Positions 9,084 through 64,000 of a stretch of 64,000 nucleotides of DNA are shown here, piece after piece. The stretch is taken from positions 6,609 to 70,608 of the forward strand of contig JBCAXK010000003.1 of assembly GCA_038534095.1 (NCBI GenBank), in the 5' to 3' direction. The first letter of the stretch is position 1. Every line of letters begins with the position of its first letter. The notes beneath the pieces were generated by a model. That model saw only the letters and a program-made list of their open reading frames with translations, did not search any database and had not been told where the DNA came from. The position numbers and the translations under genes were made by a program. Origin of the DNA: Chlamydiota bacterium. Lineage in GTDB: Bacteria; Chlamydiota; Chlamydiia; Chlamydiales; SM23-39.

Positions 9084-9960
9084 GGACCTCGCCGATTTGT
9101 GATTCTTCTTGGACAGAGTAGGTGCGCAGCACGCCCATTTTTCCGTTCATAGCACTAAGCTTTTTACCAGGTCCCACCTCAATCCAGGTATGGATCTCCT
9201 TTTTGAGGGATTGGATGATCTTTGTCCAACGGACAGGAGAGGTCACCTGATCAATCAGGTACTCTTTGATCAATGAAGCTGAGGAAACCTCTTGCCCAGG
9301 AACGTTCATAAAGAGGCGACAAGCAGGTTTTTGAAAAGACAATCCGTCAATGTAAGCAATCAGCCCCTCCCGTGCCTTCTCCATAAAAGGAGAGTGAAAG
9401 GCGCCTTCCACAGATAAAGGGATGGTTTTTGCCCCTTGAGCCGATAGAAGTGCTTGCGCATCTTTCAAGCCAGAAAAGCTTCCTGCAAGAACCGTTTGTA
9501 GCGGAGTATTGTAATTGGCAATCGAAACATCTTCACAAGGGGCAATGATTCTTGCAATTTCTTCTGGGTCCATACCGATGACAGCGCTCATCGATCCAGG
9601 GTTTTCTTCGCACGCTGCCTCCATCAAAGAGGCTCTTTGTTTAATAAGCTGAAAGGTCTCTTCAAAAGAGAGACACGAAGCTGCGTAAAGAGCGGTATAC
9701 TCTCCCAAGCTCAGCCCAGCTACAACCGATGGGAAGCAGGTTTCTTTCAAACGGTCGACAAGAGAGGCGCTTACAAGAAAAATAGCGAGCTGACTCCAAC
9801 GGGTTTTTTTTAACACATCTTCTGGACCTTCGGCTAGAAGGGTAAAAAACTGCTCACCAAGCTCTTTTTTTACGTAAGCAGATTTCTCGTCGTCGCATAG
9901 TCCCCGATCCATACCAACGCTTTGAGCCCCTTGTCCTGGAAAAATCATCGCAATGTTCAT
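9061..9960 (-). CDS. fabD: malonyl-CoA:ACP transacylase
   Basis: FPGQGAQSVGM plus active-site GLSLGEYTAL. Start taken at MNIAMIFPGQG (ATG at 9958-9960), which overlaps the fabH stop as ATGA. Confidence 0.9.
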   Translation of the reverse strand: MNIAMIFPGQGAQSVGMDRGLCDDEKSAYVKKELGEQFFTLLAEGPEDVLKKTRWSQLAIFLVSASLVDRLKETCFPSVVAGLSLGEYTALYAASCLSFEETFQLIKQRASLMEAACEENPGSMSAVIGMDPEEIARIIAPCEDVSIANYNTPLQTVLAGSFSGLKDAQALLSAQGAKTIPLSVEGAFHSPFMEKAREGLIAYIDGLSFQKPACRLFMNVPGQEVSSASLIKEYLIDQVTSPVRWTKIIQSLKKEIHTWIEVGPGKKLSAMNGKMGVLRTYSVQEESQIGEVLEKVYVQ

Positions 9961-60832: not shown

Positions 60833-61012
60833 ACCTCTTTTTTACAGGATTTTTCAGAAAAAGGCAGCAACTCTCGAGGAATTTTCCTGCAAACTACCTC
60901 TAAGTAAGTCATTACCCTCTAGCATCGTGGAAAGATGGATCAGAAAAAACTGGAAGGCTCGTAGGATGAAATAGCTACCTATCCTATCTTGATTATAAGA
61001 GAGCCTTAACCA

Positions 61013-61657
61013 TTACTCGCTTGTCAAAACTTGACTGCAGATTGTTTGCGCGTTTTCTAACCGATCTTCGTAGGTTGGATCAGGGATGTTGTTCGGAGAA
61101 AGGGGTTGATGCATCAACTTTTTTGCATAAAAGACAATGCTTTTGTAGTCACCGTGAGGATGGTCTTTTAGGTACTGTTTCAGTTCCCTATTTTTCGCAC
61201 CTGCTTCTGCGTATTTTTCAGGGTCACTCCAGGTAATCGAGATTTTTTGTTTCACAAGGTTTAGGTAAGGAAAATAGGTATTTTCTTGGCTACCTTCTAA
61301 CACCAAAGAGCTGATTTCTTTTTTCTCGTCAGAAACTTGGCTCTCTTCTGACAGGCGTATCAAAGAAACAGGATAACGGGACCTGTAAAGGATAGATCCT
61401 ACTACAGGGATGGCTTCAAGTAGACCGATCCCTATATTACCGAGACCGTGAGACACATGAATCCATGCGTGTTTTGTTAAGGAAGAATCTCTGCGCGTAA
61501 ATAAGCGAGCAATGATGCCTAAACTCATGCCGACTAAGGATTGGACTACGCCGAATACCACCTTGAGACTTCCAGATAGAGTACCTAAGACAGGGTAGGC
61601 AGAAAGGTAACTAAGGGTTCTTTCTGTTTGATAAATAGATTGATAGATATTTTGCAT
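61013..61657 (-). CDS. hypothetical membrane protein
   Basis: 214-aa ORF with two Gly-rich hydrophobic segments in the N-terminal half (about aa 15-53 and 70-91). An AT-rich tract lies upstream at 61658-61800. Confidence 0.55.
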   Translation of the reverse strand: MQNIYQSIYQTERTLSYLSAYPVLGTLSGSLKVVFGVVQSLVGMSLGIIARLFTRRDSSLTKHAWIHVSHGLGNIGIGLLEAIPVVGSILYRSRYPVSLIRLSEESQVSDEKKEISSLVLEGSQENTYFPYLNLVKQKISITWSDPEKYAEAGAKNRELKQYLKDHPHGDYKSIVFYAKKLMHQPLSPNNIPDPTYEDRLENAQTICSQVLTSE

Positions 61658-61987
61658 TTTTTAAATTACCATTGGTTTCATTACTTAAAATGATAACAAA
61701 ATATTTCATTTTTTTAAATTTTTATTATTATATTAATGTTTTTTATATTTTGTACCACGAGAAAAAAAACAAGTTATTGAATTTTAAAAGGTTAGAACAA
61801 ATATCAAAAACTGCCCTGATGGCTATGGTGCGTGGATATCAAGATCTTCGGATGCAAATGGGACGGTTCCTCCCCTTCGCCTCACTACCTGTCAAAAAAA
61901 TCGCCCTAGAAACCCACATATCTCCCTAAAGTCTTAGGAAAGGCAGTCTTTTGCAACTTTCTCATTTTCAACGGGTTGATTATTTTT

Positions 61988-62398
61988 TTAGTTGGGGTTG
62001 CTTCGAGCTCTTGATCGACGAGTTTTTCTTAATGCACAAATACTTTGGGACCAGGCAAAAATACCAATGGCTTGGTGGTGGATTTCCCTACACAATACTT
62101 CTTCATCTTGCTTTATGGTGTTTATGCACAAAAGAAACGTATATTCTTCTTCAGAGAAAGCTTCCTTTAAAAAGATATATCCATCTTTTTTTATGAAAGT
62201 AGGCCAAAAAAACTCAAGAAAATCGAACAACATTTTGGGCTCAATGAACTTGTCTTGAATAAGCCAAAATAAAAGAGTATATATAGAAGACTTGTTATTG
62301 CTCATTTTAACTCTTACTGATCCTTTAGGGATTTCATCAGACGTTGGTCTTCTTGCTTCGGGCTTAACTGGCCTGGGCCTATTAGGTGTAATAGACAA
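61988..62398 (-). CDS. hypothetical protein, possibly an orphan immunity-like gene (likely start Met32 at 62305)
   Basis: The ORF opens at a TTG at 62398, inside a palindrome. The core from MSNNKSSIYTLLFWLIQDKF... is a small acidic/aromatic protein, and the preceding 31 codons are a Pro/Arg-rich tail. Confidence 0.4.
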   Translation of the reverse strand: MSITPNRPRPVKPEARRPTSDEIPKGSVRVKMSNNKSSIYTLLFWLIQDKFIEPKMLFDFLEFFWPTFIKKDGYIFLKEAFSEEEYTFLLCINTIKQDEEVLCREIHHQAIGIFAWSQSICALRKTRRSRARSNPN

Positions 62399-62427
62399 GA
62401 CATAATCGTACGGTTATGTCTTGTCTA
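62392..62427. repeat. 36-nt near-perfect palindrome
   Basis: tagacaagacat aatcgtacggtt atgtcttgtcta: the 12-nt arms are perfect reverse complements, and the central 12 nt are palindromic apart from one symmetric mismatch pair. Confidence 0.9.
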
Positions 62428-62471
62428 TTACATTTTAGCTCTTTTTCTACTCACTGCCTTTTTCCGTCAAC

Positions 62472-62956
62472 CTATGTTTCGAATTTCTCAATTTTAGCAT
62501 GATATAATTCTGCTAACTTTTCCATTAATAGTTTGTTTTCTGAATATATTTCGAAATAAGAAGTATCAAATACTCTTATTTCTATCAAAACACCATCAAG
62601 ATCTAAAGAGCGAAATGGTTCGTCTTCGTTTCCTACACACAAATCCAATTCACTCAGGTTAGTTTGATTTTTCTTTATAATTGCTACGAAAATTCCAGAC
62701 AAAAATTGATCTATATTTTCGCATAAATCTATTAAAGATGGATCACCACCTAATTTTTTTAATTGGAATGATTCTATTCCTAACTTCTGGGGTATGGGAG
62801 AAATAGCATCAATATCTGCACAAAACCAACTATGCGGTTAATTAAATCAGACAGGTTTTTGATAATAGACAGTAGTTGAGATCCAAGGCAAACTGCTTGC
62901 CCGTTGGAAAAGACTTTCGCATCTAGTCGAATTAAATATTTTGGCTCAAACATCAT
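62472..62956 (-). pseudogene. frameshifted small ORF (immunity-like position) downstream of the toxin-like fragment
   Basis: Frame 1 starts at ATGATG (62951-62956) and stops at 62780-62782 (58 aa). Frame 2 is open from 62837 to the stop at 62472 with no ATG near its beginning. The two frames overlap over 62783-62837. Codons were checked by hand. Confidence 0.45.
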
Positions 62957-62967
62957 TGCATCTCTCT

Positions 62968-63485
62968 TTAAGATAAGGGTTCAGCTTCAGGGGATCTTTG
63001 AGGAGTCCCTCCAGTTGGGTTTGGTTTCCACTTATGCTCGTGTGGATTCGGATGATTCTTTGGACGACCATGATCAGTAAAATCAATATCCTTCACCGGT
63101 TTTCCTTGCGCATCAAACTCTCTTGCTTGTGGATATTTTCCCTTGGTGCCATCTTTTGTACCTAATTGGGTATGAGCACCGTCTGCCTCCGGAACAGGCT
63201 CTTTAGTTCGGGATCACGAGGCAATGGACGATCAGGAACATAGATGTCCGTATTTTTCCATGAAATATCAGAAAATTTAATATCCTGGGCATGATAAGTT
63301 GTCGTGGCAAGGCCGGCTCCGATTAAAGCTGCTCCAGTGCTTGTTGTTAAGCCTATCCCTATCGTAAACCCACCAACTGTTGCTACTTCTAGAGAAAAAC
63401 CACCTACCATAATAGCTGAACCTAGGTGTTTGGTCCCAGAGTGTGGTTGTGTGAATTGTGGCCATTTTTGATCGAAATTAACAGG
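62968..63485 (-). pseudogene. frameshifted, N-terminally truncated toxin-C-terminus-like fragment
   Basis: Frame A is open from 63485 to the stop at 63162 and includes MVGGFSLEVATVGGFTIGIGLTTSTGAALIGAGLATTTY. Frame B is open from 63213 to the stop at 62968 and encodes SRTKEPVPEADGAHTQLGTKDGTKGKYPQAREFDAQGKPVKDIDFTDHGRPKNHPNPHEHKWKPNPTGGTPQRSPEAEPLS with no start codon. The next ORF begins 12 nt after the stop. Confidence 0.5.
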
Positions 63486-63690
63486 TTATTCCCTAGGCGC
63501 CAAGCATTTCTGTTGAAATCGCTCCGGCAGATATTTTGATAAAAAATATGTACTTTTTGCAAATCTCTCAAAGCGCTCGATAGTGATCAAAATGCATATT
63601 TTTGCCAGTTTTTAAAAAAAAAGTATATCTCAATATCTCTCTCAAACCATCGAAAAATACGTAATCATAAAATATTTATCGATAGCTTAC

Positions 63691-64000
63691 CTAGGTAATA
63701 TCGATCATAGCGCTATTTTCTTCAGGCATGTTTTCTACAAAAAGAATGTCTATTATAGGTTCCTTTTCTCGAAAACAAGCAAAGATTTTCGGAATCACTC
63801 CGCTGTCTACAATTAGCCATAAAAGTCCTGAGAGAATGTTGATAAAACCAGTTATGCGGGCCGATTCTTTTCCTTCACTAGCAATAACAATGGAAGCTAA
63901 GCTGACCAAAGCGGCGAGTATCAGAGCGATATGCACCGTAACTGTTTGCCTATGATCTTGAAAAATCGCTTGCTCAATACTTGCTGCCTTTTCTCTAGAA
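63691..64000 (-). CDS. hypothetical membrane protein, 5' end beyond the window edge (partial)
   Basis: The frame is open to nt 64000 (…SREKAASIEQAIFQDHRQTVTVHIALILAALVSLASIVIASEG KESAR ITGFINILSGLLWLIVDSGVIPKIFA…). Two adjacent hydrophobic helices are separated by a short loop. Confidence 0.5.
   Translation of the reverse strand, partial: SREKAASIEQAIFQDHRQTVTVHIALILAALVSLASIVIASEGKESARITGFINILSGLLWLIVDSGVIPKIFACFREKEPIIDILFVENMPEENSAMIDIT

Follow-up and report, generated by a model that had tools for sequence, protein, structure and literature searches.

Probable inactivated remnant of an Rhs toxin and immunity gene pair in an environmental chlamydia

The window, meaning the whole 64,000-nucleotide stretch analysed here, corresponds to positions 6609-70608 of contig C3 in a chlamydial assembly of 1.6 Mb (87 contigs, 96.6% complete), and its minus strand carries two short neighbouring genes, each divided over two reading frames. 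The first open reading frame (ORF; 63410..63162, 82 codons) contains a Gly-rich hydrophobic stretch and reads MVGGFSLEVATVGGFTIGIGLTTSTGAALIGAGLATTTYHAQDIKFSDISWKNTDIYVPDRPLPRDPE; its sense ends with DIYVPDRPLPRDPE, after which the reading is out of frame and gives nonsense. A second frame, open over 63213..62968, has no start codon, encodes 81 residues (SRTKEPVPEADGAHTQLGTKDGTKGKYPQAREFDAQGKPVKDIDFTDHGRPKNHPNPHEHKWKPNPTGGTPQRSPEAEPLS, up to the stop codon) and finishes at its C-terminal end in DIDFTDHGRPKNHPNPHEHKWKPNPTGGTPQRSPEAEPLS. A small gene starts with ATGATG at 62956, 12 nt past the stop of this toxin tail, and is distributed over the frames 62956..62780 and 62837..62472. Both minus-strand frames of the original prediction were reproduced letter for letter, the second one open and startless as described there, and the small gene was found at the distance of 12 nt that had been reported, itself frameshifted. 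The toxin homology spans 63426..62968 and the whole cassette 63426..62451, which makes it larger than first delimited; the G+C content is 45% in the toxin piece and 33% in the downstream gene, compared to a genome average of 42.9%. The locus is very probably what is left of an Rhs (YD-repeat) polymorphic toxin gene, namely its inactivated 3' end, together with the immunity gene, likewise inactivated.

The closest relative of this cassette was found in a Simkaniaceae metagenome-assembled genome (MAG; G218, JBBDIZ010000004.1), with 89% DNA identity over 979 nt (window 63426..62451). The aligned stretch of the MAG comprises the last ~460 nt of an intact RHS-repeat gene of 1706 amino acids and the whole of the next gene (168 amino acids). 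Only two gaps in the alignment break the frame, each of them one base absent from the window: one after query position 490 (between 63211 and 63210) and the other after query position 860 (between 62841 and 62840). Consequently, the two toxin frames make up a single gene, and those of the small gene a second one. The first frameshift (63210..63211, minus strand), which is the base missing compared to the intact orthologue, splits ...PLPRDP from TKEPVPE... and separates part 1 of the remnant (63211..63426, minus strand: the Gly-rich segment LGSAIMVGGFSLEVATVGGFTIGIGLTTSTGAALIGAGLATTTY, a linker and the toxin-domain start VPDRPLPRDP) from part 2 (62968..63210, minus strand: the Ntox24-like toxin domain, with its stop codon at 62970-62968). 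Part 1 aligns with residues 1566-1638 of the G218 protein (79% amino acid identity, 80% nucleotide identity, ratio of nonsynonymous to synonymous substitution rates (dN/dS) 0.14), and the toxin domain part is 94% identical to it in both nucleotides and amino acids. The immunity-type pseudogene (62472..62956, minus strand), broken by the one-base frameshift between 62841 and 62840, shows 91-93% nucleotide identity and dN/dS values of 0.20-0.28. The toxin pieces were searched separately, as they stand in the window; the full-length picture comes from the intact orthologues.

Seven chlamydial loci with the toxin tail were retrieved. The intact large proteins have a hydrophobic, signal-like N-terminus and match the Pfam family RHS_repeat (E=2.8e-43 and 1.4e-47), bearing out the proposal of a C-terminal cassette that has decayed and comes from a polymorphic toxin of the Rhs type. 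The Rhs core of the intact orthologue ends in ...YFGKRYYDP...DPAG...NNPFRYYDPNG (core-end stretch TTDPAGLEDSFNPYQYVLNNPFRYYDPNGEN), and the Gly-rich segment lies directly 3' of this core-end motif; several orthologues present the same Gly-rich segment, the linker ISWKNTxVYVPDRPLP and the toxin module, in this order, past the core end. Each intact large gene of the seven loci is then followed, within a few bases, by a gene encoding 150-168 amino acids. In a six-frame search of 401 Chlamydiota genomes, the 81-residue piece matched chlamydial Rhs C-termini with a best E of 6e-49, which chance cannot account for. The window holds the pair that characterises Rhs polymorphic toxins, a toxin tail (63426..62968) and a small gene downstream (62956..62472), both frameshifted. 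No RHS (YD) repeats occur in the window remnant, that part of the gene being missing, and neither does the core-end motif DPxG...DPxG, as the homology begins ~17 residues past the motif, at LGSAI. Since the RHS repeats are absent here and present in the intact orthologues, the locus is a remnant of an Rhs toxin, not a functional member of the family. The NCBIfam scan of all pieces gave nothing meaningful, and the Pfam scan of the Gly-rich frame, the downstream pieces and the ORFs ORF136 and ORF214 gave no toxin or immunity family. We suggest annotating the locus as one pseudogene pair instead of three or four small ORFs.

The single Pfam match of the 81-residue piece was Ntox24 ('Bacterial toxin 24', PF15529; E=4.4e-4, profile positions 10-79 of 91), in agreement with the earlier suggestion that the His-rich module is toxin-like. 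Ntox24 was also matched by 17 of the 18 chlamydial homologues (E<=0.1) and by 9 of 71 cross-phylum homologues (E<=1e-4, best 2.7e-6), in which it was the only family matched. On these profile matches, we treat the toxin domain as belonging to a divergent clade that is Ntox24-like. The residues G18, Y27, Q29, R31, G37, D44-F-T-D-H48, H58, H60 and G68-G69 are invariant across 71 sequences, giving the signature DFTDHGRPxxHPNPHxH. The AlphaFold2 model of the domain is all-beta, with four strands and no helices (predicted local distance difference test (pLDDT) 89.4), and places DFTDHGRPxxHPNPH in the loop joining strands 3 and 4. Ntox24 is described as an all-beta domain with conserved Y, H and H (Zhang et al. 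2012, Table 2, PMC3482391), and the modelled domain agrees with this description, being small and all-beta with Y27, H48, H58 and H60. The same authors tie Ntox24 to RHS and filamentous haemagglutinin repeats, list chlamydiae among its phyla, and regard it as 'conceivably' a metal-independent endoRNase (Zhang et al. 2012, PMC3482391). A PDB sequence search with the toxin profile returned only the YD repeats of Tse15, an Rhs protein of solved structure (non-significant, E=0.11), and a PDB fold search with the model returned no resembling structure (best E=0.6). Residues 30-50 of the toxin (AREFDAQGKPVKDIDFTDHG, window about 63060-63125) resemble a YD/RHS repeat unit, the part concerned in the non-significant Tse15 match; this likeness could be due to chance or to a derivation of the domain from repeat hairpins. 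The Gly-rich segment had been compared to a pre-toxin region; the 107-residue Gly-rich frame matched neither PT-TG nor any other pre-toxin family (Pfam, E<=1), and this part of the original prediction was not upheld.

An ORF of at least 60 codons started about -40 to +250 nt from the toxin stop in 72 of 80 loci drawn from all prokaryote species genomes. With the closest orthologue as seed, an iterated hidden Markov model (HMM) placed 62 of these 72 downstream proteins in one family, which spans Chlamydiota, Bacteroidota, Pseudomonadota and Actinomycetota, as expected for the pair of C-terminal toxin and immunity gene that had been suspected. Because of its strict linkage to the toxin domain, the downstream protein is presumed to be the cognate immunity protein. 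The family is without its own Pfam model: 18 of the 62 proteins weakly match DUF2691 (best E=3e-5), and none matches Imm50 or Imm53. The AlphaFold2 model of the immunity protein is a confident alpha/beta fold (pLDDT 85), for which the PDB offered no sequence match and a best fold hit of E=0.05 with a template modelling (TM) score of 0.24.

The 5' ~4.6 kb of the intact gene, with the signal peptide, the RHS repeats and the core end, are absent from the window copy, which accords with the earlier remark that the fragment has no N-terminal trafficking or repeat region. Homology to the intact gene sets in abruptly at CCTAGGTTCAGC (63426), where a short interspersed repeat ends. The ~45 bases preceding this point (63470..63422) match the end of this repeat in a diverged copy; the decayed terminal piece (63422..63470, minus strand) is 84-97% identical to other copies over 25-48 nt, and its copy of the 30-nt repeat core is CACAACCACACTCTGGGACCAAACACCTAG (63451..63422). 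The bases CCTAG (63426-63422) are common to the repeat end and to the start of the toxin gene homology, therefore the junction lies within 63426-63422. The 30-nt core (CACCACCACACTCTGGGACCAAACACCTAG) has ~15 copies in the genome, which diverge right past CTAG, CTAA or TTAG; IS5-group elements typically have a YTAR-type target. Two subfamilies of the repeat can be distinguished (about 90-120 nt and 100-180 nt), with copies at C2:23241-23332, C7:20115-20164, C8:245-365, C9:42490-42616, C16:15624-15649, C26:22702-22798, C32:18-199, C35:6785-6874, C36:1-121 and 9168-9218, C43:12673-12749, C44:9146-9189 and C49:4008-4180. Many copies stand at contig ends, indicating that the repeats break the assembly. 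No transposase was found beside the five internal copies inspected, so the repeats look like miniature inverted-repeat transposable element (MITE)-like or solo-end elements; an Rfam scan of 61000-64000 gave only a chance match to a long non-coding RNA, and none to the repeat.

The 5' part of this gene type was not found in the assembly by tblastn with seven full-length orthologues, and there is no rhs gene upstream of the remnant, where the contig extends for 6 kb with Inc-like genes. The original prediction had considered that the fragment could be an orphan cassette and that an intact parent might lie past the window edge; this arrangement was rejected, as that region holds Inc-like genes and no rhs, and the remaining Rhs genes of the assembly are on contigs C1, C38 and C78. 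Given the repeat junction, the lack of rhs upstream and the lack of the 5' part in the assembly, the fragment is the leftover of an element-associated insertion or deletion and not an orphan behind its parent. The minus-strand genes upstream, beyond 63691, encode proteins with paired hydrophobic helices. At least four genes of this kind, whose products also have long tails that are coiled or acidic, lie on the minus strand of C3:70300-76600 and resemble a tandem family encoding Inc-type inclusion membrane proteins.

DNA similarity between the source genome and the Simkaniaceae MAG is confined to the cassette. The housekeeping genes neighbouring it in the MAG reach protein identities of only 32-48% with their homologues in the source genome, and the two genomes fell into different families in the search tallies, which indicates that the cassette passed laterally between distant chlamydial lineages or entered both from a third. 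The cassette has diverged in a mosaic fashion: nucleotide identity is 80% in the Gly-rich part (synonymous divergence (dS) 0.76) and 91-94% in the toxin domain and the immunity gene (dS 0.17-0.29). This difference suggests that a recombination breakpoint lies within the tail of the toxin, as would be expected for swapped cassettes. The dN/dS values lie between 0.14 and 0.28 throughout, and each gene is free of in-frame stops and of lesions beyond its one frameshift, indicating that most of the divergence accumulated under selection and that inactivation was recent.

The toxin tail is present in 49 of the 401 Chlamydiota genomes of the six-frame search, nearly always at the end of frames of 1500-1764 codons. 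Among all prokaryote species genomes there were 159 confirmed loci, in Bacteroidota, Pseudomonadota, Actinomycetota and others, and the window piece is 58-77% identical to the listed non-chlamydial copies (Chitinophaga, Massilia, Streptomyces, Serratia, Burkholderia and others). When 1.84 billion cluster representatives were searched with a profile, 1109 members were obtained at E<=0.001, of which 611 reached E<=1e-10. The 150 matches listed are proteins of 83-2726 amino acids, and nearly all of them have the domain at the C-terminus or within ~20 residues of it, which is the pattern of a polymorphic-toxin tail. Intact copies being common in related chlamydiae and in other bacteria, the locus is an ordinary pseudogene remnant in an environmental chlamydia. 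The one same-genus genome, G283, contains no copy of the tail; it is only 88% complete, and its corresponding contig stops right past xerD, short of the site. Two short contigs carrying this Rhs tail and immunity gene (L056 and L095; CAMCLJ010000076.1 and CAMCLJ010000073.1) come from a MAG with the record title 'Chlamydia trachomatis', and the titles of some further carriers name Verrucomicrobia or Verrucomicrobiae; in all these cases environmental chlamydiae seem to have been misassigned.

Established Rhs-toxin behaviour and the anatomy of the cassette suggest how the ancestral system would have worked. A Sec-type signal peptide would direct export of the protein, and about 1500 amino acids of RHS repeats would form a delivery shell around the tail, with self-cleavage at the conserved core end (DPxG...NNPxxYxDPxG) and delivery to a neighbouring bacterium. 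There, the Gly-rich, glycine-zipper-like hydrophobic hairpin of ~55 residues would probably aid entry of the tail at the target membrane, and the all-beta Ntox24-like domain of ~85 residues would damage nucleic acid, probably RNA (an endoRNase according to the prediction in the literature). In the producer, the cytoplasmic downstream protein of ~160 residues would neutralise the toxin. The cassette appears to have reached the source genome by lateral transfer from another chlamydial lineage and to have died recently: its first ~4.6 kb was lost where the gene now adjoins a small repeat or mobile element, and a one-base frameshift then arose in each of the two remaining genes. No functional product is expected from the present locus, because it has no promoter-proximal part, signal peptide or shell and both of its genes are frameshifted.

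Alternative explanations were weighed against this one. It is hardly tenable that each of the two frames is a small gene of its own, or that they belong to an ordinary membrane-protein gene containing a sequencing error. The first frame does have an ATG and a hydrophobic product, but both frames are collinear with one continuous C-terminus of RHS-repeat proteins of 1500-1760 amino acids in dozens of genomes, in which the hydrophobic part is never a separate gene; the collinear alignment to intact Rhs C-termini refutes this explanation. A real truncation combined with consensus errors at both frameshifts would leave an intact orphan module of toxin tail and immunity gene starting at the ATG at 63410. 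Such a module, which we consider quite improbable, would have been kept as a reserve for recombination or as a toxin-antitoxin-like addiction pair. The dN/dS of 0.14-0.28, the lack of stops in either frame piece and the newly arisen ATG at 63410 (the orthologue has Leu) are in its favour, as is the mention by Zhang et al. (2012, PMC3482391) of Ntox24 versions within apparent type II toxin-antitoxin systems. It would require, however, two independent losses of a single base, one in each of the neighbouring genes, and neither falls within a long homopolymer. The contig ends overlap by exactly 77 nt, pointing to a de Bruijn assembly of what are likely short-read data, in which indel errors are rare; moreover, the locus lacks an rhs core stretch that could serve in recombination, and no full-length rhs gene is close by. 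A somewhat less improbable but still unlikely alternative concerns the parent gene, which could have been a host-directed effector with an Rhs shell delivering the tail into the eukaryotic host cell. In favour of this are the obligate intracellular life of the organism, an RNA target that host and bacteria could have in common, and the argument of Zhang et al. (2012, PMC3482391) that many toxin-like proteins made by intracellular bacteria act against the host. An immunity-type gene is nevertheless tightly linked in 62 of 72 loci, chlamydial ones included, which indicates a danger to the producer itself; Rhs proteins of free-living bacteria from soil and water carry the same domain at 60-77% identity, and Simkania toxins with adjacent immunity genes were treated as agents of intraspecific conflict (Zhang et al. 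2012, PMC3482391). The conservation of the immunity gene argues for a bacterial, self-endangering target over a purely host-directed effector.

Several observations weigh against the interpretation of the locus as a recently inactivated Ntox24-like Rhs cassette. The Ntox24 match is below threshold (window 20.9 bits and intact G218 tail 18.6 bits, cut-off 24). No solved structure is like the toxin or immunity model, so the RNase mechanism is that of a published prediction. The junction repeat lies beside no identified transposase, and the term 'mobile element' is our inference; the assembly is in 87 contigs and 96.6% complete, so that the 5' part could lie in unassembled sequence. Finally, low dN/dS values and the lack of further lesions would be equally expected from sequencing errors in an intact module. 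The inactivated Rhs toxin and immunity pair is still the explanation we prefer. We also propose, tentatively, that the remnant reflects a recent transfer of the cassette between chlamydial families, together with a widespread and uncharacterised pair of DFTDHGRPxxHPNPHxH toxin and DUF2691-like protein (about 1100 toxin cluster representatives) whose mechanism is possibly new. The folds are confidently predicted and have no solved relative, and thus the toxic mechanism could differ from the predicted metal-independent RNase, e.g. by being metal-dependent via the His cluster.

The ancestral gene shares with the Ntox24 Rhs toxins (Zhang et al. 2012, Biol Direct 7:18) the same parent architecture, from the signal peptide to the adjacent immunity gene, and the small all-beta domain with conserved Tyr and His; chlamydiae and the RHS association are already within the range listed for the family. 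The present clade differs by scoring under the Pfam cut-off (18.6-20.9 vs 24 bits), by a richer D-H...H...H-x-H motif compared to the 'single conserved histidine' discussed for Ntox24, and by its partner, an unnamed family weakly related to DUF2691 where the published partners are Imm50 or Imm53; the window copy, in addition, is a truncated and frameshifted pseudogene. The window fragment also recalls the classical enterobacterial orphan rhs-CT/immunity modules (e.g. Salmonella Typhimurium), which consist of a toxin tail and an immunity gene without the N-terminal delivery part. Those modules keep a piece coding for the core, stand behind a full-length rhs gene and are intact for a recombination swap, whereas the window fragment begins past the core end at a repeat-element junction, has both genes frameshifted and lies on another contig than every full-length rhs gene. 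Zhang et al. (2012, PMC3482391) interpreted toxins with adjacent immunity genes in the amoeba-associated intracellular bacteria Simkania and Odyssella as rare but real instances of intraspecific conflict, and the arrangement described here is alike; the toxin of Simkania negevensis is a URI nuclease where an Ntox24-like domain is found here, and unlike those systems the locus is only a dead remnant, with other long-frame Rhs genes elsewhere in the genome.

The full-length paralogue that the original prediction had suggested seeking was not found in the genome by tblastn, which returned only Rhs paralogues 25-28% identical to the parent type. These genes, all on the minus strand, are an apparently intact frame of 1821 codons (C38:2330-7795), the tail of which has a Gly-rich hydrophobic stretch and which is followed by a small ORF of 103 amino acids (C38:2008-2319); a frame of 1566 codons that seems to end right past the core, without a toxin tail (C1:46528-51228); and a partial gene with a tail of ~250 amino acids containing an AHSKG motif, perhaps hydrolase-like (C78:452-2143). 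The tails on C38 and C78 had no Pfam match. Directly downstream of the window cassette, an ORF of 136 amino acids (61988..62398, minus strand) contains a stretch of 59 residues that is 37% identical to the third gene (L038 3903-4439) of a related chlamydial cassette, a partial match obtained with one subject only (tblastn, E=3e-8). The ORF belongs to no Pfam or NCBIfam family and, on this similarity, may be a further passenger of the cassette, possibly decayed.

By itself, the remnant is of little weight, being one more accessory gene decaying in a chlamydial genome that is reduced. The original prediction rated it as more notable than it is: 49 of 401 Chlamydiota genomes carry the tail, and Ntox24 is already listed in chlamydiae (PMC3482391). 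Rhs proteins have been reported in environmental chlamydiae since 2009, as a 'RhsB, RhsD - RHS family' cluster among outer-membrane predictions (Heinz et al., PMC2811131); with Rhs (2009) and Ntox24 (2012) both catalogued in chlamydiae, the novelty of the finding is small. About one in eight of the sampled environmental chlamydiae carries this Rhs toxin/immunity system, apparently intact, and such a system in intracellular bacteria points to conflict of bacterium against bacterium. The toxin/immunity pair, highly conserved across phyla and without a structural relative, is a fair target for biochemistry in a tractable free-living host. If the inter-family transfer is true, distant chlamydiae would meet, compete and swap DNA inside shared hosts; toxin cassettes would be exchanged among distant chlamydial lineages and lost again through repeat-element junctions and frameshifts.

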